Below are positions 9,041-50,497 of a stretch of 64,000 bases of DNA, piece after piece. Source of the stretch: an uncultured Clostridium sp. (lineage in GTDB: Bacteria; Bacillota_I; Bacilli_A; RF39; UBA660); NCBI GenBank assembly GCA_964475905.1, contig CAYYXX010000001.1, forward strand, positions 2,989-66,988, in the 5' to 3' direction. The notes under the pieces were generated by a model. The model saw nothing but the letters and a program-made list of their open reading frames with translations. It was not told the origin of the DNA and searched no databases. How positions within the stretch are numbered: the first letter of the stretch is position 1; every line of letters starts with the position of its first letter. The translations under genes and the position numbers were made by a program.

Positions 9041-9064
9041 AATTAGTATGAAGTGTAAAAATAA

Positions 9065-12312: not shown

Positions 12313-13162
12313 CTATCTTTCTATCAACATAATCATTTAAAACAGCCATAAGTTGTTTAAAAAACACTTTTAACTCCTCACTATCAAAACATAAAGAGTC
12401 TAATATTCTAGAAATATAATTATTCTGCTTAAGTAAATAATAAGAATATCTATAATTAAAAGAATACATCTTAGATAAAGTAACTAAAACTTCATCACTT
12501 GCATTATCACTAACCTTTGAACTAATAGTTTTAAATTTCTTAAAATCCTCATAAACAAGACTATTAGGATAACTTTTAATAACAGTATCAACATAAGGAT
12601 AATTAACAAATAATCTAAAAAAATCTAAATTATGAGCATCCTTTATAATAGCACACATATGTTTAGTCTTCTCATCAATATCAGGAGGAAACCCATTCTT
12701 ATCATAAGCAAACAAAGTCATCTTAATAACATTATCATACTTAGTATCTTTACTAATTTCTCTAATTAACTTTTTTCCAAACAAAACATCAATAGTCCTT
12801 TTATAAGTATCATCTTCCGTATCCATCTGATAATTAGGAGTCTTAGAAAAGTTACCTATTTCATGAAATAACCCAATAAGTTCACAGACCGCTATCTCTT
12901 CAGAAGAAAAAATACCAAGACCAGTAGCAAGTTCTCTACATATTTCCATAACCTTAAGAGAGTGAAAATACCTAGATTTAATATATGAATTATTCATATC
13001 ATACTTTCTAACATATTGTTCAAATATTTTCATAATCCTCTCACTTTTCATAAATTCCTCCTTTTGGTTAATATAAGTATATACTAAAATACTATATTTT
13101 TCAAGTGTTATTTCACCTCGCACTAAAGTTGCTCGTTGTTTTATGAAGCCTAAGGTCTTCAT
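12296..13162 (-). CDS. HD-domain phosphohydrolase-like protein, co-transcribed with valS
   Basis: H...HD.G metal-binding signature (FHSLKV...GLFHEIG); overlaps the valS start by 17 nt. Confidence 0.6.
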
Positions 13163-13192
13163 AAAAAACTTTAGAGCCTAAGGTCTCTAAAG
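13143..13192 (-). terminator. tandem hairpins with CCTAAGGT loops; the downstream-most one (on the minus strand) is followed by U6, the likely terminator of the dnaE-gmk transcript
   Basis: atgaag-cctaaggt-cttcat and ctttagag-cctaaggt-ctctaaag. In the minus-strand RNA the second hairpin is followed by UUUUUU. Confidence 0.6.
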
Positions 13193-13311
13193 TTAAGATT
13201 ATTTTATTAATTTATCAGTATAACGAAGAGGAGCTATTGCTTTTATTAATTAATACAGGAAGTCATAGTGACTTGTTTAATACTGATTTTTCATTGAAGT
13301 TAATGTTCTCC

Positions 13312-13881
13312 TTATTTCCTCTTTTCCTTATTAATAATATCAATTATTTCAGTAACAGTTTTATCAACAGTATTGTTGATAACTACATAATCATACTTAT
13401 TACTATTCTTAATTTCCTCTTTAGCCATATCAAGTCTTTCATTAATAACCTCTTCAGAATCAGCTCCTCTAGTTCTAATTCTTCTTTCCAATTCTTCAAA
13501 AGAGGGAGGCATAAGAAAAATACTAATAGCTTCAGGATATATATTTTCAACAGAAAGAGCCCCCCTTATATCCAAAACACCAATAACATCATAACCCATA
13601 TCAATATTATCAAATACAAACTCACTCGGAGTCCCATAATAATTACCATTAAATAAAGTATACTCTAAAACCTCATTATTCTTAATACTATCTTCAAAAG
13701 TTTTAACATCAACAAAGAAATAATCTTTACCATCTATTTCATTAAACCTCTTATCTCTCGTAGTCATAGACACAGAATAAATAGCCTTAGTCCTTTCAAC
13801 AAGAGCCTTAGCCACAGTATCCTTACCAACACCACCGGGTCCAGAAATAACAACAAATTTACCTTTATTCACATTTATCAC
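13312..13881 (-). CDS. gmk: guanylate kinase
   Basis: GPGGVGKDT P-loop and guanylate-kinase fold; 189 aa. Confidence 0.9.
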   Translation of the reverse strand: MINVNKGKFVVISGPGGVGKDTVAKALVERTKAIYSVSMTTRDKRFNEIDGKDYFFVDVKTFEDSIKNNEVLEYTLFNGNYYGTPSEFVFDNIDMGYDVIGVLDIRGALSVENIYPEAISIFLMPPSFEELERRIRTRGADSEEVINERLDMAKEEIKNSNKYDYVVINNTVDKTVTEIIDIINKEKRK

Positions 13882-16796: not shown

Positions 16797-16818
16797 AATT
16801 ACTCCTCCTTATCAAAAA

Positions 16819-17127
16819 TTAATATCTAAGTAATAAATAAGTAATAATAAATCCAGAAATAGCAATAATTCCCGCTAAAGTAATAACACCAGCAAACCCA
16901 TTACTACCAATACCAATATTAGCTACATTCTTAGAATTATTAATCTCCTTAGATAAAACCTTAGTTTTAGGCTTATTAACCAAAGTAATAGCCTCAGGCA
17001 TTTCAATAGGAGCCCCACTTCCTTCTATTTCTAATCTAGAAGTACCATTCCTATCAACAAAAGTTTTTTCTAATTTATTAGGATTAAACTCAAAACCATA
17101 ATCATTCTCTTTCATACCTACCCTCAC
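16819..17127 (-). CDS. hypothetical small protein with a C-terminal TM anchor
   Basis: 102-aa ORF between dnaI and dnaE, with a 4-nt overlap with the dnaI stop; no motif. Confidence 0.35.
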   Translation of the reverse strand: MRVGMKENDYGFEFNPNKLEKTFVDRNGTSRLEIEGSGAPIEMPEAITLVNKPKTKVLSKEINNSKNVANIGIGSNGFAGVITLAGIIAISGFIITYLLLRY

Positions 17128-18035
17128 TTTCTTCTATTCTCCGCAATCATAGTAATACTATCTGTTAAATACTTAATTCTCTCAATAATTCGTCTTGCCT
17201 TAATTTTACCCTCAATATCATTACCAATAAGATGAATCTCCAATTCCTTAAGAGATAAATTAGAAGTAAAAAAAGTAGGTAAATACTCTTGCATCCGATA
17301 CTGCAGAATAGTTCCTAAAACTTCATCTCTATTCCAACTAGTAACAGTCTCTGCTCCAATATCATCAATTAAAAGTAAATCACATTTTTTAACTTTATCA
17401 AAAATCTCTTTATAATCATCAGAGAATCTCTCTTTAAGACTTCTTAAAAACTCTGGATAATATAAGCAAGCAACTTTCTTACCCTTTTTAGCAAGTTCAT
17501 TAAAACAAGCCGCCACTACATATGTTTTACCACATCCAAAGTTACCTGTCAAGAATAAACCCTTACTTTTTTCTCCATTTTCTTGTTTTTTAATAAAAGT
17601 AGTAAGCCATTTAATTGTTTCAAGTCTATTCTTATCATCAGTATAAATCTCTTTCATAGAAGCATTAACAATCTCACAAGGCATATCAAAAGAAATAATA
17701 TTCTCTCTATAAGCATTCTCTGTATCCATTTTCTTCTTATACTTACAAGGAACATAAGAAAAAACAATATTTCCCTGTTCAATAATAGGATAATAAACAT
17801 ATCCACATAATTCATTTTTACATTCCATAATATTCTTACAATTCTTACAATTCTTAAGTTCTAAAGCAGAATCCTCAATACTAGAAGTATACTTAATAAG
17901 TTCATCTCTAGAAATCTTAAGTTTAGAGACAATCTTCTTAAAAGTATCATCCTCCATAGCAATATCAAAATTTCTCTCTAATGCGTATCTATCAAAACTA
18001 TACTTATTACCCATAATATTTTTAGCATCTTTCAT
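17124..18035 (-). CDS. dnaI: primosomal helicase loader DnaI
   Basis: N-terminal Cys-rich zinc-binding region plus an AAA+ Walker A (GNFGCGKTY) and Walker B (LLLIDDIG). Confidence 0.8.
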   Translation of the reverse strand: MKDAKNIMGNKYSFDRYALERNFDIAMEDDTFKKIVSKLKISRDELIKYTSSIEDSALELKNCKNCKNIMECKNELCGYVYYPIIEQGNIVFSYVPCKYKKKMDTENAYRENIISFDMPCEIVNASMKEIYTDDKNRLETIKWLTTFIKKQENGEKSKGLFLTGNFGCGKTYVVAACFNELAKKGKKVACLYYPEFLRSLKERFSDDYKEIFDKVKKCDLLLIDDIGAETVTSWNRDEVLGTILQYRMQEYLPTFFTSNLSLKELEIHLIGNDIEGKIKARRIIERIKYLTDSITMIAENRRK

Positions 18036-19318
18036 TACTTATACTCCTTTAAAAGTTCTTCTAGCTGATTATCCTCACCATCACTAATTATATTTTTTTC
18101 AATTTCCTTATCAAACCAATCAGGAATTTTAGCATTAACCCTTTTTTCTTCTAATTTCTTTTTACTTCTCTTTTTATGTTCCTTTTCACAAAGACTCATA
18201 GCATCCTCAACAGTCTCAATTCCTTTTCTTTGCCATTCCCCAGCCATCATTTCAACAAGCCCTCTTGTAAGCTTTTTATCATTAACATTAAGAATATAAT
18301 CAATAAGAACATTAACAACCCCAGGTTTCAATTTATAATCAATACACAAATCTTCCACCAATTTCAAATCTCTTCTAGTAGGCTCATTACCCTTATTCTT
18401 ACTAATAAGAAGTTCTCTAGGAGAAATAGTCTCAAAAGTATAAATCATTTTAGCTCTCTTAGAAGTATCACCAACAGGCTTTCTTAAATACTCAGGCTGA
18501 CATCTAGAAACAATAGTAGGAAGATTACCCCCATTATCAAACTGATAAATATTTCTAGCACCCTTTCTTAACATTTCTTTATTAATAGTACCTTTCTCAT
18601 TAAAAGAAGCCATAACAATATTAGACATCTTAATAGCATCAATATCATAAATAAAAGATAAACTAATAATAAGTTCCTTAATCTCTTTAGTAAAAACTTT
18701 ATTAGTATCAATATTCTTAGGCATAGAATTTACAAGAAAATTAAAATCAAAATTACTATTAATACTAAGCTTAAGCCTATTATATTTTCTAATATCCTCA
18801 AGGGACATTTCATAAGAAGTCATACAAGTACTCTCAAAAACCTCATTAAACTTTTTCGTAACATCAGTATAACCCGTAGTATTAAATCTAGGCATTTTAA
18901 AACTCTTAACTAAATTATCATATTCAATTTTACCAATATTACTATATAAAACAATATTAAGAATAGGATGAGACAAAAATTCCATAGCACTAGCAGGACT
19001 ATATAGCTCATACACATAATTATTAACACTACCCTCTTTTACCAAAGATTTAATAAGACAAATAGCTTCTAATTTTCCTCTAGCCTCTTCAACTTCATTA
19101 ATAGTCATTCTAAGATTAGAAACTATCTTTTGATGTGTATAAACCGAACTAACAATTAATGAATTATCCAAATCAACCCAAAGTAAAAAATAAAGCATAA
19201 CAGCATCAATACCAATAACAGGGAGATATAAACTAGTAATAATTTTTCTATCTTCATCATGTAATATTGTTTTATTAATAACAACATAAGTATCAGCGGG
19301 TAAAAGATTATGTTTCAT
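18035..19318 (-). CDS. dnaB: replication initiation and membrane attachment protein (Firmicute DnaB/DnaD-like)
   Basis: C-terminal DDBH2 motif (YILNV...GEWQRKGIETVEDA) and dnaB-dnaI synteny. Start at MKHNLL is uncertain; the track ORF extends 45 codons upstream. Confidence 0.7.
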   Translation of the reverse strand: MKHNLLPADTYVVINKTILHDEDRKIITSLYLPVIGIDAVMLYFLLWVDLDNSLIVSSVYTHQKIVSNLRMTINEVEEARGKLEAICLIKSLVKEGSVNNYVYELYSPASAMEFLSHPILNIVLYSNIGKIEYDNLVKSFKMPRFNTTGYTDVTKKFNEVFESTCMTSYEMSLEDIRKYNRLKLSINSNFDFNFLVNSMPKNIDTNKVFTKEIKELIISLSFIYDIDAIKMSNIVMASFNEKGTINKEMLRKGARNIYQFDNGGNLPTIVSRCQPEYLRKPVGDTSKRAKMIYTFETISPRELLISKNKGNEPTRRDLKLVEDLCIDYKLKPGVVNVLIDYILNVNDKKLTRGLVEMMAGEWQRKGIETVEDAMSLCEKEHKKRSKKKLEEKRVNAKIPDWFDKEIEKNIISDGEDNQLEELLKEYK

Positions 19319-19407
19319 AAAAAATCCCTGCCTTTCTCTATATATTGTATAATAAAAAAAAATAAAAGTAAAGAAAAAAGAAGCCAAAATAACCTCCCTT
19401 AAAAACT

Positions 19408-20073
19408 CTATTTTTTCTTCCAAAAACAAAGTAAAGAAATAATAAATAAACAAATACCAATAATAAAAATATAAGAGTTATATTGATATAAAAAAGAACT
19501 AACTAAATTAACAAAGATATGAACTAAACTAATCTTAATCACATCTCTAGTCTTAATAAAAATATAACCATTAATAATTCCAATAAAAAAAGCAATAACA
19601 AGTGATAAAAAATTAGAATGGGCTATAGCGAAAATAAAACTAGATAAAAAAATAATAACCCACTTATTAGAAATAAACTTCTCAAGCTTTATAATAAATA
19701 AATACCTAAACAAAATCTCTTCAAAAATAGGACCAACAATACTAGAAGCTACAACAATAAGAAGAATAGAAATATCATAATCCTGATAAGAATAAATACC
19801 ATATTTATAAAGAAGCATATTATAAATAATAGATATAGATAATCCCAGTAAAATATAAGGAAAATAATTATTTTTATCATTAAAAGAAATATCAATTCTC
19901 TTCATATTAAAAATAATAAATAAAATATCAAATACCATAATCAAAATAGTACCAATATAATAACTCCTACTAACACTAAAAACAATAATAGAAAGAATAA
20001 GAATAAAATATTGAATAAAAAAAACAATTATTATTTCTTTTAAAGATAAAATAAAATTCCATAAATACTTCAT
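19408..20073 (-). CDS. CPBP-family (CAAX) intramembrane metalloprotease
   Basis: Multi-pass membrane protein with EEILFR and FxxxH motifs. Confidence 0.65.
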   Translation of the reverse strand: MKYLWNFILSLKEIIIVFFIQYFILILSIIVFSVSRSYYIGTILIMVFDILFIIFNMKRIDISFNDKNNYFPYILLGLSISIIYNMLLYKYGIYSYQDYDISILLIVVASSIVGPIFEEILFRYLFIIKLEKFISNKWVIIFLSSFIFAIAHSNFLSLVIAFFIGIINGYIFIKTRDVIKISLVHIFVNLVSSFLYQYNSYIFIIGICLFIISLLCFWKKK

Positions 20074-20139
20074 AAAACCTCCAAATAAAAATAAGATAGC
20101 TTAAATACAACTAGCTGTCTTATATAAAAGTACTTCATT

Positions 20140-20352
20140 TTAAGCCTTAACATTAGTCTCGGTAGAAACATTAATAGCTTGTAAACCTTTAGCTGTTTCA
20201 ATAAGTTCGAATTCTACAATTTGACCTTCAGATAATGATTTATAGCCATCTTGCTTAATAGCAGAATAGTGAACGAAAATATCTTCGCCATTAGGATAAT
20301 CAATAAAGCCATAACCCTTATCATTGTTAAACCATTTAACTCTTCCTTGCAC
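20140..20352 (-). CDS. cspA: cold-shock protein (CspA family)
   Basis: [17 protein letters not shown]...VHYSAI RNP motifs; 70 aa; about 250-nt upstream untranslated region. Confidence 0.9.
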
Positions 20353-20599
20353 TTTGCCACCTCACTTTTCTTAACTTCCCTACAAGAATATTATAATATA
20401 CTGCACAACCCTTTTGCAAACAATTAAGTATGACAAAATTCGACAAATACTCTTAAGATGAACACTTACTCTTACCGCAAGCAAAACAATCATACCACCA
20501 ATTAACTACCAATAACCCTCTTCACATACAAATAAAGAAAACGAGATACCAAAAGGGCTAAAGTTAACTGTTTGTGTACAAAAAAAATAGATAAAAAAT

Positions 20600-21478
20600 C
20601 TATTTAATTTCCACATTCATAATTTCAAGAATTCTATTCAAATCATTAGCATTTTCAAAATAAATACAAACCTTCTTACTATCTACCTTAACCTTAGTAC
20701 CAAGAAAATCCCTAAGCTCATTCTCAATATGAAAATAATTAGCATCTGCTCTCTTCCTAGAAACAGGAATTCTCTTTTTAATTTCTTCATTCTTACTAAT
20801 CTCTTCTAAATCATGAACACTCATATTATTTTTAATAACCTCATCAGCAAGACTATTAATCTTTTCAGTATCCTCCATCTTAGAAAGAACTCTAGCATGT
20901 CCCATAGAAATTTCTCCATCAAGAATCTTCTTTTGAATATCTTGAGGTAAATTAAGAAGTCCTAAAGTATTAGTAATATGACTTCTACTCTTACCAATCT
21001 TTCTAGCTAAATCCTCTTGTCTAATATCTAAATTATCAATAATCCCCTTATAAGCCCAAGCAAGCTCTATCGCAGTAAGATTCTCCCTTTGAATATTCTC
21101 AAGTAAAGAAATCTCTCTCATCTCTTCATCAGAAAACTCCTTAACAATAGCGGGAATCTTATCCATACCAGCTATCTTACTAGCTCTAAGTCTTCTTTCA
21201 CCAGCAATAAGATCATAACCTTTGATCCCCTTTTTTACTATAATAGGTTGAAAAACTCCATAATTCTTAATAGACTCAGCCAATTCATTAAGAGCCTCTT
21301 CATTAAAAGTTTTTCTTGGCTGATAAGGATTAGGCCGAACATCATTAACATCAATTTCCATTACTTCATCAGCAGAAGCATTTTCCATAACATTACTTTC
21401 AAAAGTATCAAAATCAAGTACTTCACTAGAAAATAATTCTTCTAGTCCCTTACCTAAGGCTTTCTTCTTCTGTTCCAT
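20600..21478 (-). CDS. parB: chromosome partitioning protein ParB/Spo0J
   Basis: ParB box GERRxRA, HTH and C-terminal dimerisation domain. Confidence 0.9.
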   Translation of the reverse strand: MEQKKKALGKGLEELFSSEVLDFDTFESNVMENASADEVMEIDVNDVRPNPYQPRKTFNEEALNELAESIKNYGVFQPIIVKKGIKGYDLIAGERRLRASKIAGMDKIPAIVKEFSDEEMREISLLENIQRENLTAIELAWAYKGIIDNLDIRQEDLARKIGKSRSHITNTLGLLNLPQDIQKKILDGEISMGHARVLSKMEDTEKINSLADEVIKNNMSVHDLEEISKNEEIKKRIPVSRKRADANYFHIENELRDFLGTKVKVDSKKVCIYFENANDLNRILEIMNVEIK

Positions 21479-22262: not shown

Positions 22263-22428
22263 CTGTTTCACCTTAATTTTCCTCATATATATTGTACCAA
22301 AAAAAAATAAAAAAAGAAAGTGATTTTTGTATATTTTCTTATTTACCAAACAACTGTATTATTTTATACTAAAACTAAATACTAAGTAAAGCACCTATAC
22401 TGAAAGTATAAAAAAACGCCAAAAATCC

Positions 22429-22457
22429 TTGACATAATCAAAATAAAAATATATAAT
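22429..22457 (+). promoter_or_regulatory. sigma-A promoter for rpmH-rnpA (TTGACA - 17 nt - TATAAT)
   Basis: Perfect consensus hexamers with 17-nt spacing, about 35 nt upstream of the rpmH ATG. Confidence 0.55.
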
Positions 22458-22490
22458 AAAATAGCATTTGACTTGGAGGTGTATTGTATA

Positions 22491-22613
22491 ATGAAAAGAA
22501 CATATCAACCTAATAATAGAAAAAAAGCTAAAAAGCACGGTTTCTTTAGTAGAATAAAAGGTAATGTTTTAAAAAATAGAAGAGCAAAAAAAAGAAAAAA
22601 ATTATGTGCTTAA
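22491..22613 (+). CDS. rpmH: 50S ribosomal protein L34
   Basis: [40 protein letters not shown]; RBS GGAGGTG; not in the track because it is under 60 aa. Confidence 0.9.
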
Positions 22614-35485: not shown

Positions 35486-36220
35486 ATGCTGAAATTTGTA
35501 ATTTGTGAAGATAACAAAGAAGATCTAGCCAAAATAGTACAAACAGTAAATAAATCAATGATGAAATATAGCGTTGAATATAGAATAGCCAAATTTGAGA
35601 AATATGATGAAAAATTCGAAGAGATAATAAAGGAACAATTTGATACAAAAATATATTTATTAGATATTGAACTACCGGGAGTTGAAGGATTAGAAATAGC
35701 TTCAGAAATAAGAGAACAAGATGACAAAAGCTACATAATATTTATAACTAGTCATCCCGAATGTAAAAATGATATATTCTACTCAAGATTAGAAGCAATA
35801 GACTTTATTTCAAAAGATCATAGATATGAAAAAAGAGTCCAAGAAACCATAGAGTACATAATGGATAGATTTACAAGAAATAAGATATTAACATTTACTT
35901 ATGATTATACAATGTACAAAGTTCCCTATAAAGATATAACTTTTATTGAAAAAGATCCAATATTAGGAAGATGTATAATTCATTTCACAAGTGATAAACC
36001 AAAATATATAAAGAATACAATAACAAATCTAGAAGAAGAACTAGCACCACTATTTTTCAAAACACACAAATCATGTGTAGTAAATCTAGAAAATATCAGC
36101 AAGGTAGATTATGCCGAGTCCACTATTTATTTCAAAAATGGCGATTCAACATCATTACTAAGCCCTGCAAACAAGAAGGAGTTGAAGAATCATGTTAGAA
36201 ATTATGAGAACATTCTTTAA
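35486..36220 (+). CDS. agrA: LytTR-family response regulator (AgrA-like)
   Basis: Receiver domain (DIELPGVEG) plus a C-terminal LytTR DNA-binding domain. Confidence 0.8.
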   Translation: MLKFVICEDNKEDLAKIVQTVNKSMMKYSVEYRIAKFEKYDEKFEEIIKEQFDTKIYLLDIELPGVEGLEIASEIREQDDKSYIIFITSHPECKNDIFYSRLEAIDFISKDHRYEKRVQETIEYIMDRFTRNKILTFTYDYTMYKVPYKDITFIEKDPILGRCIIHFTSDKPKYIKNTITNLEEELAPLFFKTHKSCVVNLENISKVDYAESTIYFKNGDSTSLLSPANKKELKNHVRNYENIL

Positions 36221-37493
36221 TTGTTCAATATTAGTGATGTCTGTTTATATTTTTGGAATAATAATATTTAATAATGGAAAACTAAAAATATCAATAAAAG
36301 ATATACTAGCAATTCTTCTATGTACCGCCTTACATAGTACAGCATATCTTTTATTAGAAGGTACTGAGAAAACAATACTATCAATGTTATCTTTCTCACT
36401 ACTAATAAAAATATCATTTGATATAGATTTTATAAAATCATTGTTTTCTTCAATACTATACTCAATATTTACTATCATTCCAGATCTAGTAGTACTAGCA
36501 TTTGTTACTAAAGTATTAAATATGAGTAAAGACTATTGCTATTCCATATTTGCTGGAAGTATGATAGGTAATATAGTAATTAGTATAATAATGATATTAA
36601 TAATATATATTTTAAGAAAGCCATTAAAAAAACTATTTAGTTATAAAATATCTAAAAATATTGAAATAGTATTAGTATCACTATTAACATTAGTAACTAT
36701 AGCAATATTTTTCTATAAATTAATAAATAATTATAAATTTACAAATGATGTACTAGCATATTTATTAGTAATAATAACTCTAGTAATTATATTATCCTAT
36801 CTATTCAGACAAAATATAGAAAATCAAACAATGTTTAAGAAATACGACGATCTATTAACAATCATGAGAAATTATGAAAGTGATATAGAAGAACAAAGGA
36901 CAACAACTCATGAAACAAGAAATGAATTATTAACAATAAGATGTCGTGTAGAAAAATTTGGAGATGAAAAACTATGCGAATACATAGATAGTATTATGGG
37001 AGATAAGAAGAATGTTGATAGTGCAAAATATTCCAAATTCAAATATTTACCTACAAATGGCTTAAAAGGATTTCTATACTATAAATTTATTGAAGCCGAA
37101 GAAAAAGGAATTAGTGTAAAACTAAATATATCAAAACAAATAGAAAAGAGTTTCTTAATAGAATTAAATACAAAAGATTTCAAAGATTTAACAAGAATAT
37201 TAGGAGTATATCTAGATAATGCAATTGAAGCATCCTCATCTTCCCAAAATAAACAATTAGGTATAGAAATATATAAAATTAAATCAAACATAGAAATAAT
37301 AATATCAAATACATATGATAACATTATAGATGAAGACAAAATTGGTAATGAAAGATTTAGTACTAAAGGAGAAAATAGAGGTCATGGACTATTATTAGTA
37401 AGTAGAATATTAAAGAGTAATCCAAAATTCGAATCAGAAACAAAGAAAACAGATTCCCTATATATTCAAACATTAAAAATAAAAGACAAATAA
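36192..37493 (+). CDS. agrC: AgrC-like sensor histidine kinase (HPK10 / GHKL HATPase_c_5)
   Basis: Six N-terminal TM helices; C-terminal ...TRNEL...GHGLLLVSRIL typical of AgrC/ComD kinases. Confidence 0.75.
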   Translation: MLEIMRTFFNCSILVMSVYIFGIIIFNNGKLKISIKDILAILLCTALHSTAYLLLEGTEKTILSMLSFSLLIKISFDIDFIKSLFSSILYSIFTIIPDLVVLAFVTKVLNMSKDYCYSIFAGSMIGNIVISIIMILIIYILRKPLKKLFSYKISKNIEIVLVSLLTLVTIAIFFYKLINNYKFTNDVLAYLLVIITLVIILSYLFRQNIENQTMFKKYDDLLTIMRNYESDIEEQRTTTHETRNELLTIRCRVEKFGDEKLCEYIDSIMGDKKNVDSAKYSKFKYLPTNGLKGFLYYKFIEAEEKGISVKLNISKQIEKSFLIELNTKDFKDLTRILGVYLDNAIEASSSSQNKQLGIEIYKIKSNIEIIISNTYDNIIDEDKIGNERFSTKGENRGHGLLLVSRILKSNPKFESETKKTDSLYIQTLKIKDK

Positions 37494-37531
37494 AAAAAGA
37501 ATCAACAAACAGTATATAAGATTCTTTTTTT
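37492..37531. terminator. bidirectional terminator between the convergent agrC-like and agrD genes
   Basis: A-run, aagaatc...gattctt hairpin, then T-run; a second palindrome aaactattaatagttt follows. Confidence 0.5.
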
Positions 37532-37559
37532 ATTAGATAAACTATTAATAGTTTAATTA

Positions 37560-37673
37560 CTATTTTAACAAACTTTTAGGCATTTTAGGCTCGTCAATAA
37601 ACCAAAGAGTACATGCTTTAGTACCAGCACCAGTAGAAAGTGAACCAATTAGATTTAATAATCTTGCTAACAT
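37560..37673 (-). CDS. agrD: AgrD-like autoinducing-peptide precursor, 37 aa (MLARLLNLIGSLSTGAGTKACTLWFIDEPKMPKSLLK)
   Basis: RBS AGGAGG overlaps the agrB stop. Amphipathic leader, Cys in a C-x4 context, then IDEPKMPKSL matching the conserved AgrD C-terminal tail. Confidence 0.7.
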   Translation of the reverse strand: MLARLLNLIGSLSTGAGTKACTLWFIDEPKMPKSLLK

Positions 37674-37684
37674 ACAACTACCTC

Positions 37685-38314
37685 CTAATCTATATTTATA
37701 CCATACGGCTTATAAGTAACAATATAGTTCTTATAATTATCATATGGTAGTTGAAACATCCTATATACCAGAGGATGAATCATCAAACTTGCATCCAGTA
37801 GTCCAAAACATAAGTATGAACTAACAACAGTATTCTTAAATAAAATAATAAATATTAAATATATAAGTCCAATAATAATAGTTATTATTTTATATTTTTT
37901 TCTCTTATATTTATTAACAAGTGGTCTTTTATAAGTATCCGCTGGAGCATATAACATAAGAATTACAAAAGAAATACCACTAATCAAATACTTAACAATA
38001 GTAGCCATACCAATATATTTACATATAAAGGCCGTACCAATAAACAAAACTCCAGATATAAAGTAGCAATGCCAACTCTTTTTAGCGTGCATACCAAAAG
38101 CTGTAGTTCTAATAATGTTATAAGATAGTAAAATAAATAATACCTCTTTAGCAATATTAAGAATGAAAGCTACTCCAAAAATAACTATTGTCTTAGAAAA
38201 AGTAATATACAAAGATTCCAATCCATAACTAATTTCTTCAAGCTTCTCTTCACTATATTCAGGATAACTTTTCTTAATTGCACTAATAGATTTACTTAAA
38301 AATTTTTCTCTCAT
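37685..38314 (-). CDS. agrB: AgrB-family membrane endopeptidase (AIP processing)
   Basis: HAKKSWHCYFISGVLFI...YAPADTYKRPL...KYKRKKYK matches AgrB conserved blocks. Confidence 0.8.
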   Translation of the reverse strand: MREKFLSKSISAIKKSYPEYSEEKLEEISYGLESLYITFSKTIVIFGVAFILNIAKEVLFILLSYNIIRTTAFGMHAKKSWHCYFISGVLFIGTAFICKYIGMATIVKYLISGISFVILMLYAPADTYKRPLVNKYKRKKYKIITIIIGLIYLIFIILFKNTVVSSYLCFGLLDASLMIHPLVYRMFQLPYDNYKNYIVTYKPYGINID

Positions 38315-42534: not shown

Positions 42535-44178
42535 ATGGAAACAATAATAATAACCTTGGATGCTAAAGAAAAAAAAGAATATATAAAAGGAATAAAATTA
42601 AAAGAAATAATAAATAACACAGCCAAGGATACTGTAGTAGCGGCTAATTACAATAACAAAATGATATCACTTGAAGATCCATTAACCCAAACAGGTACAT
42701 TATCACTTTATGATATAAATACTAAAGAAGGAAATAAAATATATGAAAAAGGCTTGTTATATTTATTTGAAGTATCCGCAATAAAAATCTTAGGTAAAGA
42801 TACAAAAATAACTATAAAGCATTCCATAGATAAAGGAATATACTGTACCATAAATAAAAATATAACTAATGACGATATAACAAAAATAAAAAAAGAAATG
42901 AAAGACAAAGTAAAAGAAGATATACCATTTAAAAAGATAGAAACAACAAAGTCTGAAGCAATAGAATACTTCAAAAGTATAAAAAGAGAAGATAAAGTAA
43001 GAACATTAGAATATATGAAAGCAAATTATGTAACACTATATAAACTAAGTGAAACATATAACTATATAATAGGAGACCTACCATATACAACAGGAGCCTT
43101 AAAATACTTTGACTTATCACTAATAGCAAATAGAGGAGTAGTAGTAAGATTCCCATCAATATATGACAATAAAAAAATAGTAAAATATACTCACCATGAA
43201 AACTATTTCAATAGTTTAGAAGAATATTCAGTATGGGGAAATAACTTAAATATAAACAATTTAGGAGAATTAAATGAATTTATAACAAACAACAATGCAG
43301 GAGATATAATCCAATTATCAGAAATAATGCAAAACTATAAACTACTGAGTATAGCGGAGCAAATAGTCCTAAATAAAGAAGACTATAAAGTAATACTTCT
43401 ATCAGGACCATCAAGTTCCGGAAAAACAACAACCGCTATGAAGTTATCCCTATACCTAAGAAGTTTAGGATTAAATCCTACCCACTTATCATTAGATGAC
43501 TACTTTCTAGAAAGAAAAGATACTCCAGTAGGAGCAAATGGCAAACCAGATTTCGAATCATTAAAAGCAATAGATACAGAACTATTTGATAATCAAATAA
43601 GTAAATTACTAAAAGGTAACAAAGTAACCGTACCAACATTTAATTTTATAGATGGAAAAAAAGAATATAAAAGAACAGTCAAGTTAAAAGAAAACGATAT
43701 ATTAATAATAGAAGGCTTGCACGCATTAAATGAAGAAATCCTAACCAACATACCCAAAAAGAAAAAATTTAAAATATATATAAGTCCATTAACATATCTA
43801 AATGTTGATAACGATAATAGAATAGGAATGACAGATTTAAGATTACTAAGAAGAATAGTAAGAGATAATAGAACAAGAGGATATTCGCCATCAAAGACAC
43901 TAGAGACATGGCCAGATGTAAGAAATGGTGAAGAAAAATATGTATTCCCATATCAAGATAATGCCAATGCCATGTTTAATACAAGTCTAGCCTATGAATT
44001 AGCAGTAATAAAAACATATGCAGAACCATTACTATTCACTATAAAAGAAGATGATCCAAATTATCAAGTAGCACAAAGATTAATAGAATTACTAAAATTT
44101 GTCCTACCAATACCAAGTGAAACAGTACCTCAAACTTCAATCCTAAGAGAGTTTATAGGAGGAAGCTACTTCGAATAA
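42535..44178 (+). CDS. uridine-kinase-family protein fused to an N-terminal ThrRS/TGS-like domain
   Basis: P-loop LLSGPSSSGKTTTA and uridine-kinase core (DDYF...IIEG); 547 aa, resembling clostridial ThrRS-N/uridine kinase fusion proteins. Confidence 0.7.
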   Translation: METIIITLDAKEKKEYIKGIKLKEIINNTAKDTVVAANYNNKMISLEDPLTQTGTLSLYDINTKEGNKIYEKGLLYLFEVSAIKILGKDTKITIKHSIDKGIYCTINKNITNDDITKIKKEMKDKVKEDIPFKKIETTKSEAIEYFKSIKREDKVRTLEYMKANYVTLYKLSETYNYIIGDLPYTTGALKYFDLSLIANRGVVVRFPSIYDNKKIVKYTHHENYFNSLEEYSVWGNNLNINNLGELNEFITNNNAGDIIQLSEIMQNYKLLSIAEQIVLNKEDYKVILLSGPSSSGKTTTAMKLSLYLRSLGLNPTHLSLDDYFLERKDTPVGANGKPDFESLKAIDTELFDNQISKLLKGNKVTVPTFNFIDGKKEYKRTVKLKENDILIIEGLHALNEEILTNIPKKKKFKIYISPLTYLNVDNDNRIGMTDLRLLRRIVRDNRTRGYSPSKTLETWPDVRNGEEKYVFPYQDNANAMFNTSLAYELAVIKTYAEPLLFTIKEDDPNYQVAQRLIELLKFVLPIPSETVPQTSILREFIGGSYFE

Positions 44179-44192
44179 ATAAAAATAAAAAA
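44116..44192. repeat. 77-bp direct repeat, copy 1 (includes the last ~63 nt of the udk-like gene)
   Basis: Identical except for one mismatch to 48279-48355. Confidence 0.85.
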
Positions 44193-44366
44193 TAATCCTA
44201 ATAATAAATTAGAATTAACAAAAAATAATATAGGATTAATACCCTTAGCAGAATATGTTAAGGGTTTTAAATTGCTTGTAAAAGATCACTAAAAAGAACA
44301 TAATGAATGAAAACAGAACTAAATAAATCTAAAAGTACTGTAGCTGATAAACTTATGATACTCCCA

Positions 44367-44717
44367 CTATTTTTTTAAATCTACTATTGCTTGAATGTAA
44401 GTTTCAGCTTTTATTTTTTCTTCAGCATTTAAACTACGATAATTAGAAATTAAGGCATTTTCTTTTTCTGATAATGAAAAATTAGATGGTGTTGGATCAT
44501 CTGTTAAATCTAATAAATAATCTGTTGAAGTATTTAATATTTTAGCCATTTCTATAATAGTGGATGTCTTAGGTTTAATTTTACCGCTAATATATTGAGA
44601 TATAGCCTCTTGAGATACCTCTAAATCTACTGCTAAAGAGGTAAGAGATTTATTTTGAGCTTTAACCATCTTTTTTAAGTTTTTCATAGTTGTTTTTTCA
44701 TCTTTCAAATCAACCAC
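44367..44717 (-). CDS. XRE-family HTH transcriptional regulator
   Basis: HTH_XRE (LTSLAVDLEVSQEAISQYISGK). Start codon ambiguous between GTG at 44717 and TTG three codons in. Codon usage differs from flanking host genes. Confidence 0.7.
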   Translation of the reverse strand: MVDLKDEKTTMKNLKKMVKAQNKSLTSLAVDLEVSQEAISQYISGKIKPKTSTIIEMAKILNTSTDYLLDLTDDPTPSNFSLSEKENALISNYRSLNAEEKIKAETYIQAIVDLKK

Positions 44718-44774
44718 CTCCTAATATAAGTATTACTTAAAAAAAACTATTTTATAATAAAATTATATAATTAC

Positions 44775-44818
44775 TACTTCAAAATAATTTGAAGTATGGT
44801 ATAATTAAAATTGAAGTA
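44775..44818. promoter_or_regulatory. candidate operator: perfect inverted repeat TACTTCAAA-taa-TTTGAAGTA plus a third TTGAAGTA half-site, overlapping an extended -10 (TGgTATAAT) in the XRE/ATPase divergent region
   Basis: The palindrome lies at 44775-44796 and the extra half-site at 44811-44818. Confidence 0.35.
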
Positions 44819-44840
44819 ATAATTATAATTGGAGGTAACA

Positions 44841-47558
44841 ATGAAAGAAAATATTATAAAATCAGATAGAAAAATAAATAAATTACAAAAGCATATGAAA
44901 AAGCAAGCTCAAAAGAAAGCAAAAGGAATTAAAATAGGTAACAAGAGTTCAAATATAAAGTTTTATAGTTTGAGTATTAATGAAGCACTAAAATATTTAG
45001 ATACAACTAAATTTGGTCTTTCTTTAGATGAGGTAAATAACCGCTTAAAAAAAGATGGTAAAAATCAATTAGTAGAAGCAAAAAAGCAATCCAATTTAGG
45101 CAAATTTTTAAATGAATTTAAAGATTTAATGATAATCATTTTAATAATATCAGCCATTGTGTCATTTTTTCTCTCGATATTAAATAACGAACCTTTTACT
45201 GATAGTATCATCATAATTGCAATAGTAGTTCTTAATGCCATATTAGGATTTGTACAAGAATTAAAAGCAGACAAAGCAATTGATTCATTAAGAAAAATGC
45301 AAACAATAAAAGTCAAAGTTAAAAGAGAAAATAAAATATATATAGTTAATAGTGAAGACATTGTAAGAGGCGATATATTAGTTTTAGAAGCAGGAGATTT
45401 AGTACCAGCTGATGCAAGAATTATTTATCAAGCATCATTGAAGACTGATGAATCCTCTTTAACAGGGGAATCCATTTCTGTTCCTAAGAATATTAAAAAG
45501 ATAGATAAGAACACACCTTTATCATCTAGAAATAATATGATATATTCTGGAACAACCATTGTTCATGGTAAATGTCTTGCTGTAGTTTCTGAAATAGGGA
45601 TGAATACAGAATTTGGTCTTATTGCAAAAAGTCTAAATGAAGAGAAAAAAGAAATTACACCCCTTCAGAAAAAAATAGATGGAATAAGTAAGTTTTTATC
45701 ATTTATCATTGCAATAATAATATTAATAATGTTTGTAATTGGAATTATAAAAGGAATGAATATATTAGATGTGATTATGCTTTCTATTTCTCTTGCTGTA
45801 GCAGCAATTCCAGAAGGATTACCAGCAGTAATTACCATTACTTTGTCGTTAGGAGTCAGCATAATGGCTAAAAAAAATGCTATTGTAAGAAATATGTCTA
45901 GTGTAGAAACTTTAGGATGTACTGAAATAATATGTTCTGATAAAACGGGAACAATTACTCAAAATAAAATGACAGTACAAGAAATATTTTATGATAATAA
46001 AATAAATGATATTAAAAAGATAAATAAAAATAATAAACTATTTGATATTATGATTTTAGATAATAATGTTGTAAAAAATAATGATGAATACATTGGAGAT
46101 CCAACTGAAATAGCACTTTATAAGTGCTGTGAAGAATATTGTAATATTTTAAAAATTAGAAATGATAATAAAAGAATTGATGAATTACCTTTTGATTCAG
46201 ATAGAAAAATGATGTCCACAATAAACAAGAATAATGATACAATAACAATATATACTAAAGGTAGTTTTGATTCACTAATTAACCATTGTTCTTACATATT
46301 TGAAAATAACAAAGTCGTTAAATTGACTGATAAAAAGAAAGCTTCATTAAAGAATATTGAAATTGCTGAATCAAATAAAGCATATAGAATTTTATCTTAT
46401 GCCTATAAAGAAATAGAATCATCATATAAATTAGATGAAAATTTGGAAAATGATTTAATTTTTGTAGGAATGACTGCAATGATAGATCCACCAAGAACTG
46501 ATGTAAAAGAAGCAATAAAGCAATGCAAAATTGCTCATATTAAGCCAATTATGATAACAGGAGATAGTTTAGATACAGCAAAAACTATTGCTAAAGAAAT
46601 TGGTATATTAGATAATGATGATGAAGCAATAATCGGTACAGATATTGATTCAATGGATGATGAAAAATTAAAAGATAGTGTTAATAAATATTCAGTTTAC
46701 GCTAGAGTAAGTCCAATAAATAAATTAAGAATTGTAAAAGCATGGAAAGAAAACAAAAAAATAGTTGCTATGACAGGAGACGGAGTAAATGATGCACCAG
46801 CACTAAAAGCAGCAAATATAGGTGTTGGTATGGGAATAACTGGAACCGAAGTTTCTAAAGGAGTATCCGACATTATACTTTCAGATGATAGTTTTTCAAC
46901 AATAGTAAGTGCAGTAAAAGAAGGAAGAAGAATTTTTGATAACATTAGAAATGTTTTAGTATATCTATTAACAGGAAATATTGCTGAAGTATTAGTTATA
47001 TTTATTGGAATGATTGGTGGAATAGAAATATTTTTACCTATTCAACTATTATATATAAATCTTATAACAGATAGTATACCTGCTATTGCACTTGCATTTG
47101 AAAAAGAAGAAGAAAACATAATGAATAGAAATATTAGAAAAAATGATAGTACATTTTTTACACCATTTTTAATTGCTAAAATGAGTATATCGGCAATATT
47201 AAAAACAATTGCAACATTACTAGTTTATTTTATAAATATAATAGTGTATAATATTGAAATAGCAACAACGCTGTCATTTCTAACTTTAATTCTTTTAGAA
47301 GTTATTTTTGCTTATTCTTGCAAAAATATAAAAAAGAGTATTTTAAATAAAAATATTTTTAATAATAGCTTTATGAATAAAAGTGTATTAATATTATTCG
47401 GTATACAAATTATAGTGTTTACTACACCAATCAAAAGTATATTTAATATTGTAGATGTAAATTTAATACAAGTTTCATATAGTGTTTTAATAGTAATTAT
47501 TATATTTATAATTGATGAATTGTTCAAAAGTATAGTTTATAAGATATTTAAAGATTAG
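44841..47558 (+). CDS. P-type Ca2+-transporting ATPase (P2A/P2B-type)
   Basis: DKTGTIT phosphorylation site, TGES, GDGVNDAPAL, ten TM helices; start at ATG 44841 (RBS GGAGGT); T-rich codon usage unlike the host. Confidence 0.9.
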   Translation: MKENIIKSDRKINKLQKHMKKQAQKKAKGIKIGNKSSNIKFYSLSINEALKYLDTTKFGLSLDEVNNRLKKDGKNQLVEAKKQSNLGKFLNEFKDLMIIILIISAIVSFFLSILNNEPFTDSIIIIAIVVLNAILGFVQELKADKAIDSLRKMQTIKVKVKRENKIYIVNSEDIVRGDILVLEAGDLVPADARIIYQASLKTDESSLTGESISVPKNIKKIDKNTPLSSRNNMIYSGTTIVHGKCLAVVSEIGMNTEFGLIAKSLNEEKKEITPLQKKIDGISKFLSFIIAIIILIMFVIGIIKGMNILDVIMLSISLAVAAIPEGLPAVITITLSLGVSIMAKKNAIVRNMSSVETLGCTEIICSDKTGTITQNKMTVQEIFYDNKINDIKKINKNNKLFDIMILDNNVVKNNDEYIGDPTEIALYKCCEEYCNILKIRNDNKRIDELPFDSDRKMMSTINKNNDTITIYTKGSFDSLINHCSYIFENNKVVKLTDKKKASLKNIEIAESNKAYRILSYAYKEIESSYKLDENLENDLIFVGMTAMIDPPRTDVKEAIKQCKIAHIKPIMITGDSLDTAKTIAKEIGILDNDDEAIIGTDIDSMDDEKLKDSVNKYSVYARVSPINKLRIVKAWKENKKIVAMTGDGVNDAPALKAANIGVGMGITGTEVSKGVSDIILSDDSFSTIVSAVKEGRRIFDNIRNVLVYLLTGNIAEVLVIFIGMIGGIEIFLPIQLLYINLITDSIPAIALAFEKEEENIMNRNIRKNDSTFFTPFLIAKMSISAILKTIATLLVYFINIIVYNIEIATTLSFLTLILLEVIFAYSCKNIKKSILNKNIFNNSFMNKSVLILFGIQIIVFTTPIKSIFNIVDVNLIQVSYSVLIVIIIFIIDELFKSIVYKIFKD

Positions 47559-47644
47559 GAGCAAATACCCTAAAAACAAAAAATATTGCCATTTTTCATG
47601 GCTATGTATGCCTTGAAGGCAAGCTCAAAGCAAGGAAGAAAGGA

Positions 47645-48208
47645 ATGAGACTTAATATGAATGAAAATGGAATTTATGATTCAAAATTGATGCCATTATC
47701 TAATGAAATAAATTTAAGAATTGCTCAAGAAAAATTATTAAATAAAGAACCCTTAACAACGAAAGAAAAAATACTTTTAGGTAGAGATCGCCCAGTTAAA
47801 GTACTTGATGGATATGAACTAAAATCAGATTGTGTATATAGAGCAATTAGTGAAGAATTATATAATAAATATTTAGAATCAGGATTTATATATGGAGTTG
47901 ATGAAGAAGACGAATATACAGAGTACATTCAAGATGGAAAAAGTTTTAATAATAATAAAGGAGTTGATTGGTATCTTGGAGGAGTATGTTTAAGATATGG
48001 TGATGTAATAATTGAATGCCCTGCAAGTGGAAAATATTTTCGCCCAGCCAACGATAATGGATGCCATTTATCTATGGATCCAACTGTTAGGCATATGAAG
48101 TCATCTGGATATATTAATCCTGTTCCAATGAGTATGATTAAATTAATAAAACATCCAAATATTTCTATTGACATTAATGAAATAGGAAATAATCATAAGA
48201 CAAGATAA
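47645..48208 (+). CDS. hypothetical protein (187 aa) carried on the island
   Basis: Good RBS; no recognisable motif; codon usage matches the island. Confidence 0.5.
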   Translation: MRLNMNENGIYDSKLMPLSNEINLRIAQEKLLNKEPLTTKEKILLGRDRPVKVLDGYELKSDCVYRAISEELYNKYLESGFIYGVDEEDEYTEYIQDGKSFNNNKGVDWYLGGVCLRYGDVIIECPASGKYFRPANDNGCHLSMDPTVRHMKSSGYINPVPMSMIKLIKHPNISIDINEIGNNHKTR

Positions 48209-48278
48209 AGGCAAAATATATCAATATACCAGTAAGAATAATAATTATTTCATTGTCTAAATTAAGAAAACTAAAAAT

Positions 48279-48355
48279 AGTGAAACAGTACCTCAAACTT
48301 CAATCCTAAGAGAGTTTATAGGAGGAAGTTACTTCGAATAAATAAAAATAAAAAA
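48279..48355. repeat. 77-bp direct repeat, copy 2
   Basis: Duplicate of 44116-44192; encodes the same ...SETVPQTSILREFIGGSYFE stop. Confidence 0.85.
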
Positions 48356-48378
48356 GCATATATATTAATAGGTGTAAC

Positions 48379-49041
48379 ATGAATAAATACAAACTATTAA
48401 TAATAATATGCTTTTTAATAATAACTCTATGTCTTCCTAAGGTAACTGCTACCGTAAAAAATATAAATCTACTAGGAAAAACCATAGTATTAGACGCAGG
48501 ACACGGTGGAAAAGATAAAGGAGCCACCAGTGGCAAAATAATAGAAAGTGAGCTAAATCTAATAATAACAAAAAAGCTAGAAAAAGAATTAGCCTCAAGA
48601 GGAGCAACTGTCTACTTAACAAGAGAAGATGAAAAAGATCTATCCACAACTACCATAAATAGAAAAAGAAGTGATCTATATAACAGAGCCAAATACATCA
48701 ACAAAATATCTCCTGATATGTACATATCAATCCATCTAAATTCCTCTCCATCCCCCTCATGGCGAGGACTACAAATATTCTATACTGATAAAAACGAAGA
48801 AAATAAAGAAATAGCAGAAATCCTAACCAATCACTTAAAAAATACCATTCCCAATACAAGAGATATAAAAAAAGATAGTAGTTATTATATGTATAAACAT
48901 ATCAAATCCCCGGGAGTACTAATAGAAGCAGGTTTCATATCAAATGCCAATGACAACTACCTATTAAGAAATGAAGAATATCAAAACAAACTAATAGCGG
49001 CAATATCTGATGGTATAGAAAAATATTATCAAAATACCTAA
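48379..49041 (+). CDS. cwlD: N-acetylmuramoyl-L-alanine amidase, Amidase_3 family (CwlD-like germination amidase)
   Basis: Signal peptide plus VLDAGHGGKDKGA ... E ... H zinc-amidase motifs; about 220 aa, typical CwlD size. Confidence 0.7.
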   Translation: MNKYKLLIIICFLIITLCLPKVTATVKNINLLGKTIVLDAGHGGKDKGATSGKIIESELNLIITKKLEKELASRGATVYLTREDEKDLSTTTINRKRSDLYNRAKYINKISPDMYISIHLNSSPSPSWRGLQIFYTDKNEENKEIAEILTNHLKNTIPNTRDIKKDSSYYMYKHIKSPGVLIEAGFISNANDNYLLRNEEYQNKLIAAISDGIEKYYQNT

Positions 49042-49477: not shown

Positions 49478-49570
49478 TATAGTTATATTCCTTTTAAAAA
49501 AGAATAAAAAATATATCATTTTACAAAAAAGTGTGATATAATTTAATACAGAATAATGGGAGTTGATGCT

Positions 49571-50497
49571 ATGGAAAAGAATTTCAAGACAATAGAGGAA
49601 CAATTAGAAATACTAAAAAATAAAGCCCTAATAATAGAAGAAGAAAACGAAGTAAAAGAAATACTATTAAAAGAAAACTATTTCTTCATAATGGGATATA
49701 GACACGTATTTCTAAAATCAGAAAGAGATAAGAAGTTTATAGCGGGAACAACATTCAATGAAATATACTCATTATTCACATTTGATAGGAATTTTAGAAA
49801 TATAATATTTAAAAATGTATTAGTTATCGAAAATCAATTAAAATCTGTAATATCATATCAATTATCTAGAAAATATGGATACCGAGAAAAAGATTACTTA
49901 AATCCCAAAAATTTTACAGATAATCATGAAAAAGTAAGGCGTGTAAGAGATCTAATAGATAAGATGAAAAGACAAATAAGAATAAATGCCTCATCACATA
50001 ATGCCACAATGCACTATATAAATAATTACGGATATATTCCCTTATGGGTACTAGTAAAAGTATTATCCTTTGGTATTGTTTGTGAATTATATACCATACT
50101 AAAAAAAGAAGATCAAATAGAAATAGCAGAAATTTTCCAAACAACACCACAAGTATTAGAAGACATATTAATAATACTTTCAAATTACCGTAATTTATGT
50201 GCTCATGAAGATATTGTATTTGAACACAAAACAGAAAGAGTAATACCAGACACCAATTACCACACATTAATGAATATCCCAAAAATGGATGATGAATATA
50301 TATACGGGAAAAACGATTTATTTGCAGTAGTAATTATCTTCAAAATACTACTTAATAAGAAAGCATTTAGACTTATGATGAAAGAAATAGAATATGAAAT
50401 AGAATTATTAGATGGAAGAATAGATACCATTCCAATAAATAAAGTATTAGATAGAATGGGATTTCCAGAAAATTATATAGAAATAATAGAAATGTAG
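49571..50497 (+). CDS. Abi_2-family abortive-infection protein (AbiD/AbiF-like)
   Basis: NYGYIPLWVLVKVLSFG matches the Abi_2 conserved core; stand-alone. Confidence 0.6.
   Translation: MEKNFKTIEEQLEILKNKALIIEEENEVKEILLKENYFFIMGYRHVFLKSERDKKFIAGTTFNEIYSLFTFDRNFRNIIFKNVLVIENQLKSVISYQLSRKYGYREKDYLNPKNFTDNHEKVRRVRDLIDKMKRQIRINASSHNATMHYINNYGYIPLWVLVKVLSFGIVCELYTILKKEDQIEIAEIFQTTPQVLEDILIILSNYRNLCAHEDIVFEHKTERVIPDTNYHTLMNIPKMDDEYIYGKNDLFAVVIIFKILLNKKAFRLMMKEIEYEIELLDGRIDTIPINKVLDRMGFPENYIEIIEM

Follow-up and report, generated by a model that had tools for sequence, protein, structure and literature searches.

The 64,000-nucleotide stretch of uncultured Clostridium sp. DNA analyzed here (the window; contig CAYYXX010000001.1, positions 2,989 to 66,988) carries a 4,086-bp insert at positions 44193-48278, between a gene for a uridine-kinase-like (udk-like) protein of the PRK family and a gene for a CwlD-like N-acetylmuramoyl-L-alanine amidase (cwlD). 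The insert holds a minus-strand gene for an XRE-family helix-turn-helix (HTH) regulator, a gene for a P-type ATPase, and an open reading frame (ORF) of 187 amino acids (aa) that has no Pfam match, and it lies between two 77-nucleotide (nt) direct repeats. An earlier note, made from the sequence alone, had described these genes correctly and had read the structure as site-specific insertion into the 3′ end of the udk-like gene. The analysis reported here relates the insert to a family of integrative mobilizable elements (IMEs) with a target site in amidase genes, and it leads to a different account of the repeats. Loci and contigs used for comparison carry handles of the form L001.

The insert, its repeats, and the empty site

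The two copies of the repeat (Table 1) lie where the earlier note placed them and are identical at 76 of 77 positions, the single mismatch falling at repeat position 51 (C in copy 1, T in copy 2). Copy 1 includes the 3′ end and stop codon of the 547-aa udk-like ORF, as described, with a count of 20 final codons in place of the 21 first given. A 50-nt core of the repeat is present just twice in the window, where 100 dinucleotide-preserving shuffles predict no occurrence, and the pair is the sole long, high-identity direct repeat within the 64 kb. The sequence is single-copy in L001, a second strain of the species, and in related species. At the mismatch position, T is found in copy 2 and in L001; among the relatives, L002 has C and the others have T. 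Because the relatives are mixed, the mismatch cannot serve as a polarity marker that chooses between models. The junctions show microhomology of at most 4-6 nt in A-rich sequence and are uninformative.

The 64-kb window contains no tRNA or tmRNA gene, the classical island target, and no recombinase gene was found in the insert, as noted before, or elsewhere in the window, including by tblastn. The exact 28-nt core of the repeat has no match in viral contigs or in JGI metagenome contigs, and those collections therefore supplied neither an attP-like copy nor further strains.

The insert-free arrangement was found in L001, which comes from a different sample. The udk protein is identical there and the gene runs straight into cwlD, with L001 positions 2780-2952 collinear with window positions 48279-48451 at 98.8%. 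The same direct succession of udk and cwlD is seen in ten related genomes (L002-L009, L012, and L016), all metagenome-assembled genomes of uncultured gut "Bacilli/Tenericutes," including CAG:321- and CAG:302-like organisms. In these the order is clpP-udk-cwlD, followed by u118-abi2-htrA where the contig is long enough; cwlD starts 33-55 nt past udk, and udk identity to the window is 74-86%. The udk protein retrieved 18 loci, and matches to the XRE, ATPase, and 187-aa proteins were absent from all of them. Exact-protein look-ups for further strains gave only L001 for udk, no record for a 116-aa reading of the XRE protein, and, for cwlD, the 187-aa protein, and ClpP, short Logan contigs ending within the repeat plus L001. 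Because these look-ups yielded so little, comparison within the species is limited to two strains.

The composition of the insert also sets it apart. Host DNA has a GC content of about 27% and a strong, strand-fixed third-position bias in which the plus strand is A-rich, with C exceeding G, regardless of gene direction. Plus-strand host genes have A3 of about 0.6 and T3 of about 0.25, and minus-strand host genes have T3 of about 0.6 and A3 of about 0.2. The three genes of the insert have A3 approximately equal to T3 in both orientations, as do IME genes of other hosts and unlike all 58 host genes. Their plus-strand third-position AT skew is the lowest among the 61 genes (z of -2.5, -2.9, and -4.1), whereas their GC and GC3 are ordinary (z about -1). 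The quantitative check thus bears out the foreign composition proposed earlier as a matter of skew, not of GC content. Together with the empty site in relatives and the match to IMEs described below, the skew upholds the horizontal origin put forward in the earlier note.

Relation to an integrative mobilizable element family

Over 3.8 kb, the insert matches the central cargo module of a larger element at 89-92% nt identity (blastn; L023, L025, and L030). The match has two blocks, one covering the XRE gene, a small ORF, and the ATPase gene (44368-47564) and the other covering a gene for a 183-aa protein (47654-48218). The parent element is about 10.8 kb long, and its full architecture was found in about ten contigs (L023-L030 and L042-L044). 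The left half contains a variable left gene, a Mob_Pre (MobV) relaxase, the XRE gene on the minus strand, a 49-aa ORF, the ATPase, and the 183-aa protein. The right half contains a 148-aa protein and an HTH repressor as a minus-strand pair, an 87-aa gene, an HTH_36 gene, a 47-aa gene, and a serine recombinase. Pfam scans confirmed the Mob_Pre domain of the relaxase and identified the recombinase, of 533 aa, as a large serine type with Resolvase, Recombinase, Zn_ribbon_recom, and DUF4368 domains; it is about 33% identical to an annotated TndX. Judged by this predicted gene content, the parent is an IME of the Tn4451 kind.

Both ends of the insert lie inside this element. At the left is a noncoding scrap of the relaxase gene, about 170 nt long, which starts about 93 nt into the gene and is interrupted by a gap of 37 nt; of the gene sequence farther on, about 1 kb has been lost, and tblastn recovers residues 32-72 and 89-102. 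At the right, a short stretch resembling the HTH_36 gene probably marks the point of truncation. The window lacks the left slot, most of the relaxase gene, the repressor pair, the recombinase, and both the 87-aa and the 47-aa gene. No attL or attR motif of the IME was found in the 64 kb, and the region upstream of the relaxase gene, where oriT would be expected, is also absent. Relative to L025, roughly 2 kb has been lost from each side. Of the two possibilities raised in the earlier note, a decayed remnant or an element mobilized in trans, the first is borne out: the left end lies inside the relaxase gene, and the recombinase and attR have been lost.

Table 1. Features of the insert and its surroundings, in window coordinates
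Feature	Position	Strand	Evidence or remark
udk-like gene, 547 aa, PRK/uridine kinase family	42535..44178	+	Pfam PF00485, E 1e-18
Direct repeat copy 1	44116..44192		Final udk codons and stop, then A-rich spacer (14 nt); C at repeat position 51
Relaxase (Mob_Pre) gene scrap, noncoding	44188..44357	+	blastn 81-87% to L023 8141-8350, L030, and L025
XRE-family HTH regulator, intact	44367..44717	-	Pfam HTH_3, E 3e-11; 94-97% aa identity to IME XRE
Divergent promoter/operator region, XRE / ATPase operon	44718..44840		Conserved with IMEs, 91% mean column identity
Ca2+-type P-type ATPase fusion, 905 aa	44841..47558	+	Five P-type ATPase Pfam domains
187-aa protein	47645..48208	+	No Pfam match; constant downstream partner of ATPase in IMEs
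Probable diverged HTH_36 gene fragment	48217..48272	+	blastn 78.6% to L023 14756-14811, E 2e-6; weak alone
Direct repeat copy 2	48279..48355		Unbroken run into normal udk-cwlD spacer and cwlD; collinear with L001
cwlD-like N-acetylmuramoyl-L-alanine amidase (Amidase_3), intact	48379..49041	+	Pfam PF01520, E 1e-48
Intact attB-like site GACGCAGGACACGGTGGAA	48493..48511	+	GHGG codons 48499-48510; inferred crossover CA 48502-48503

The retained cargo has changed in one respect. The 49-aa ORF that lies upstream of the ATPase gene in the IMEs (44841-44954 in the window) is in frame with the ATPase core (from 44955), a fusion created by deletions of 6, 39, and 1 nt, as read from alignment with the IMEs. 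The original start codon of the ATPase has changed from ATG to ATA, and the ribosome-binding site that served it is gone. The protein is 89-92% identical to the IME ATPases P0104-P0106, and among proteins of solved structure it is most similar to Listeria LMCA1 (E 4e-177), with SPCA and SERCA ranking lower; it is predicted to belong to the P-type IIA Ca2+-ATPases (LMCA1/SERCA-like). An extended -10-like element, TGGTATAAT, can be read in the divergent promoter region. With the cargo ORFs intact and this region conserved, expression of the cargo is plausible.

The 187-aa ORF probably starts at 47657, since its homologues have 183 aa. None of the 102 homologues has a Pfam domain, and they adjoin the ATPase in all of the parent contigs (L023-L030 and L042-L044); homologues of the two proteins, 85-92% identical, always lie side by side. 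The AlphaFold2 model of the 187-aa protein has a pLDDT of 91.5, and a fold search against the PDB gave no significant match. The weak matches (E of at least 0.03, TM about 0.3) cluster in ADP-ribosyltransferase-fold proteins, namely AvrPphF/HopF, Tpt1/KptA, TreTu, and DarT. Residues invariant in the family (P0001-P0102) are Y65-R66, E90, D108-W109-Y110, and K152-S153-S154.

Another slot of variable content lies on the left side of the relaxase gene in the IMEs. It can hold a gene for a 416-aa protein (L023 6753-8003 and L030 637-1887, with an RVT_1 reverse transcriptase match in L030), a gene for a 412-aa protein of unknown kind (L025 182-1420, L024, L026, and L027), or, in the remnant of L039-L041, a gene for a Fic protein (5929-7014). 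These left-slot genes are candidates for defense or toxin cargo.

A second subfamily (L034-L038), which likewise encodes a large serine recombinase, has other end sequences and carries TM2/BLIP cargo; its TM2 protein P0239 is indexed, as an exact sequence, in 628 collection blocks. Megablast of a full IME (L025) against plasmid and phage collections gave no match.

Target site, recurring remnants, and formation of the insert

The parent family has a precise target. In L023-L028 the IME splits Amidase_3 genes at the coding motif D-x-G-H-G-G, and in L023 and L025-L028 the genes split, at residue 41-43 or so, are cwlD orthologues. The att sites were read from attL and attR of five IMEs. The attL sequence is ...GGnCATGGAGG followed by ATACTGAAAAATCC, and attR is ...TTCCTGCACA (in a longer form, ...TTTTCCGATTCCTGCACA) followed by yGGTGG...; the crossover can be assigned to the CA dinucleotide from a host polymorphism in L027, and attP of L025 lies in the region of TTCCTGCACATGGAGGATACTG. 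The second subfamily uses the same GHGG motif in several kinds of amidase gene. No long flanking repeats were found at the full-length IME copies, and none are expected of serine recombinases, which use a 2-bp crossover (review PMC5704250). A search of the literature on serine recombinases with cwlD or amidase targets returned nothing relevant. This is thus an amidase-GHGG-specific IME family with a precise target and swappable cargo, widespread in uncultured gut Bacilli, for which no description was found in the literature searched.

Integration leaves two products of the split gene. One is a 41-45-aa N-terminal amidase peptide ending ...GHGGY*, and the other is a 189-aa amidase ORF restarted at an ATG from the right end of the IME (MIIWTFPIPAHGG...), in which xHGG is rebuilt and the signal peptide is gone. 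Such products were seen at L025 10823-11392, L023 6007-6132, and L026 6521-6658.

The window has kept the target. Its cwlD gene is intact, and the attB-like site within it agrees at 22 of 23 bases, counted by eye, with the attB rebuilt from L027. This site is 147 nt downstream of repeat copy 2, and the remnant thus adjoins the family's target gene and does not lie inside it. The 77-bp repeats themselves are unrelated to the att sites of the element.

The target bears directly on the reading offered in the earlier note, in which, spelled out, the repeats would be attL and attR of an element that had entered the udk 3′ end and brought a substitute for it, now lacking an integrase in the manner of a cis-mobilizable element (CIME) and movable in trans. 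Its appeal is that a near-perfect 77-bp repeat recreates the C terminus of a gene, as it does in many tyrosine-integrase islands, and the single mismatch could mark the element-borne copy. It is nevertheless very improbable. The left end of the insert falls inside the parent's relaxase gene and the IME's own att motifs are absent from the window, while the parent uses a serine recombinase with a 2-bp crossover in the GHGG codons of cwlD (review PMC5704250) and its full copies have no long repeats. No occupant of the udk 3′ end was found in the ten relatives in which cwlD directly follows udk, the repeat core is absent from viral and JGI metagenome contigs, and the remnant of L001, described next, has a different, shifted host repeat. 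Site-specific insertion at udk is therefore set aside, and so is mobilization in trans: no att sites are present, the relaxase is reduced to a scrap, and the region upstream of it is gone.

Two more remnants were found beside intact amidase genes. L001, which lacks the window insert, has about 2.1 kb inserted past the equivalent of window position 48451 (cwlD codon 24). The repeat there is at least 99 bp and probably 111 bp long, equivalent to window positions 48341-48451, and covers the spacer and cwlD codons 1-24; its right copy is cut by the contig end. It is shifted by about 60 bp relative to the window repeat, and the XRE108 and TM2 genes of the insert are 81-83% identical at the nt level to the cargo module of the second subfamily. 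The L001 remnant (2842-5134) encodes XRE108, a TM2 protein, a DUF6591 lipoprotein, and a 133-aa membrane protein, and one end of its repeat falls within the same A-rich 15 nt as an end of the window repeat.

The second case, L040, is from another host. An XRE108-TM2-BLIP module without relaxase or recombinase lies directly upstream of an intact 541-aa amidase gene, between repeats of 72 nt that are 93% identical (5714-5785 and 9053-9124). Each copy spans the ribosome-binding site of the amidase gene and its first codons as far as the position of attL. Beyond the left copy, which has lost 9 nt that include the crossover core, about 90 nt of IME left-end sequence persist. The regenerated attB has since been occupied by a further IME in L039 and L041. 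The duplicated stretch begins 31-100 nt ahead of the amidase start codon in each of the three remnants (window, L001, and L040). These three independent cases suggest that cargo is stranded and fixed by a repeatable route while the target gene is restored.

The recurrence also counts against an artefact, in which a metagenome assembler would have spliced IME reads of some other organism into the contig through shared k-mers. The window is seemingly metagenome-derived, and short-k Logan contigs do break inside the repeat. The repeat is host sequence, however, which leaves an IME no k-mers in common with the site; the right junction (48278/48279) is reproduced in an independent Logan assembly (L020, run SRR14160761) that is 100% identical over 46548-48308; and the analogous structures in L001 and L040 come from independent samples and assemblers. 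An assembly error is accordingly a most implausible source of the structure.

The insert is best explained as a stranded, nonmobile IME remnant flanked by duplicated host target DNA, a reading held with fair confidence. In the stepwise history proposed here, an IME would first have integrated into cwlD at 48502/3. An illegitimate junction would then have joined the IME interior to host DNA at a point 100 nt before cwlD begins, duplicating host sequence from 48279 toward attB, making cwlD intact again and losing the recombinase side. This second step could have come about by unequal sister exchange and subsequent removal of the intact copy by the recombinase, by homology-anchored repair using an IME-free copy, or by template switching. 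Later deletions would have cut the repeat down to 77 bp as they took away the left-hand 5′ fragment of cwlD together with attL, the left slot, and the greater part of the relaxase gene. With this history, the repeats would be duplicated target DNA and not recombination sites, and their overlap with the udk 3′ end is incidental. Since long repeats are prone to loop-out, short ones would be the survivors. L040 looks like the stage before repeat trimming, the intermediate that the stepwise model expects. For the exact order of these events the odds are about even.

Several observations weigh against this account. The hosts of the full IMEs are distant, with cwlD only 41-47% identical to that of the window, and integration into cwlD of this species was not seen directly. 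No intermediate with a longer repeat, from 48279 to attB, was found for the window insert, whose stepwise history is drawn by analogy with L040. The HTH_36 match is short, at 78.6%, and tblastn with the HTH_36 protein gave nothing at E <= 1e-3. The comparison within the species covers two strains. Finally, at least two illegitimate events and the internal deletions are needed, and a single-step insertion would be more economical.

Such a single step would be the capture of a truncated linear piece of IME by one repair or replication event that duplicated 77 bp of the target. The piece could have come from an IME that an abortive reaction of the recombinase had linearized at attP and that was then degraded by about 2 kb from both ends. 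Its capture could have followed a recombinase break at the nearby attB and proceeded by microhomology-mediated template switching. The part retained is the part of the IME farthest from attP, the junctions are A-rich with the limited microhomology noted above, the internal gaps could be template jumps of the same episode, and one event would replace three. The structure also formally matches the published class of long-target-duplication insertions (Furuta et al. 2010, PMC2853133) in that the repeat exceeds 30 bp and is single-copy at the insert-free site, the insert is shorter than 20 kb, and mobility genes are lacking. The restriction and modification genes that form part of the original definition are not in the insert, whose cargo is the XRE regulator, the P-type ATPase, and the 183-aa protein. 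Set against this, L040 keeps a true IME left end with attL beside its left repeat, which argues that the element integrated first and was truncated later. Without a link to attB, landing 150-225 bp from the family's target is very unlikely, and the mechanism of the long-target-duplication class has never been demonstrated experimentally. One-step capture is therefore judged unlikely, though well short of negligible.

Under the preferred reading of a stranded remnant, the insert should not be mobilizable in trans, because it has no integrase, relaxase, or att sites and probably no oriT. Its only way out would be recombination of one 77-bp copy with the other. That its composition has not ameliorated and that the repeats are still identical at 76/77 positions point to a recent event. 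The ATPase island would then be immobile, with cargo that, to judge by the intact reading frames, is probably still expressed.

Surrounding host genes and comparison with known systems

Other differences among the relatives at this locus lack the repeat structure. L006-L009 and L016 have about 1.1 kb of extra DNA between u118 and abi2 (about 12750-13860), and L007 and L008 have about 4.8 kb between htrA and tsaE (about 15900-20700). No long direct repeats were found at either indel, and long repeats are therefore no general feature of indels there. The Abi_2 gene (49556-50497) lies directly upstream of htrA across several genera of gut Bacilli, with 58-89% aa identity (L002-L009, L012, and L016, and also L024, L025, L035, and L037), and despite its family name it is a conserved core gene and not a mobile defense gene. 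About 6 kb upstream of the insert is an agr-like quorum-sensing cluster (about 35486-38314; genes seen through L031) with AgrB, a 37-aa peptide gene, a HATPase_c_5 histidine kinase, and a LytTR response regulator.

The A-rich plus strand, with C exceeding G, spans the whole window (1-64000), and gene direction flips at about 22350-22600 without a flip in skew. Minus-strand genes have T3 of about 0.6, G3 of about 0.17, and C3 of about 0.01, and plus-strand genes have A3 of about 0.6 with C3 exceeding G3. About 41 kb of genes, including tsaE/B/D and htrA, thus lie on the A/C-rich strand, which would be the lagging strand by the usual rule. The cwlD-abi2-htrA orthologues in the more distant L025 host have the opposite bias (T3/G3-rich), and those of the closer L002-L016 are A3-rich.

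A decayed IME remnant is a known kind of thing, and the parent element finds its nearest counterpart in Tn4451/Tn4453 of Clostridium perfringens and C. difficile. Shared features are the MobV relaxase, the DUF4368 large serine recombinase, the small cargo, the 2-bp crossover, and the absence of long flanking repeats (PMC5704250). Tn4451 is described as low in target specificity (PMC5704250), whereas the parent family is highly specific for the GHGG motif of Amidase_3 genes. The similarity of the recombinases is modest (about 33% identity to TndX), and the cargo is a Ca2+-ATPase or TM2/BLIP module instead of catP. What the window holds, unlike Tn4451, is a dead fragment without its own integrase or an intact relaxase.

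Intervening elements with serine recombinases are found in sporulation genes, with skin in sigK and SPbeta in spsM. The parent family is similar in that a large serine recombinase element interrupts a conserved gene with a sporulation/germination-type name (cwlD), and precise excision would rebuild the gene. The likeness stops there, as evidence was found neither for developmentally regulated excision nor for sporulation in these reduced gut Bacilli, and the family also targets other Amidase_3 genes, such as those for LysM-type amidases.

CIMEs and other decayed remnants of integrative and conjugative elements or IMEs in accretion arrays have likewise lost their recombination and transfer modules while keeping cargo. 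As in such arrays, the regenerated target can take a new element beside the remnant, which is the situation in L039 and L041. A CIME keeps attL and attR and is excisable in cis by the integrase of an incoming element (PMC5704250); with neither att site present, the window insert is not a CIME.

There is also a structural likeness to insertions with long target duplication (Nobusato et al. 2000; Furuta et al. 2010, PMC2853133), in which a block free of mobility genes lies between unique repeats of more than 30 bp that are single-copy at the empty site of another strain. A published example from Haemophilus likewise has a repeat that overlaps a gene's 3′ end (PMC2853133). That class was described for restriction-modification systems and has no known source element (PMC2853133), whereas the window insert can be traced to a defined IME with its target 147 nt away, and the L040 intermediate suggests that the repeat is what is left of a larger, target-regenerating duplication. 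A signature that looks like the textbook one, with long direct repeats rebuilding the 3′ end of a gene, can therefore mislead, since the repeats here would be duplicated host DNA.

Recurrent stranding of cargo next to a regenerated target may help to explain the long-target-duplication insertions. A more general and decidedly speculative proposal is that serine-recombinase IMEs in essential-like genes are recurrently "domesticated" by a single pathway, possibly triggered by the recombinase, in which repair of a break or stall at attB duplicates a short piece of host DNA from upstream, regenerating the target and attB and stranding the cargo. If true, this would give a mechanistic origin to at least some of the unexplained insertions of that class, and it would provide a route for the fixation of IME cargo genes in the chromosome that leaves the regenerated site open to a further element.

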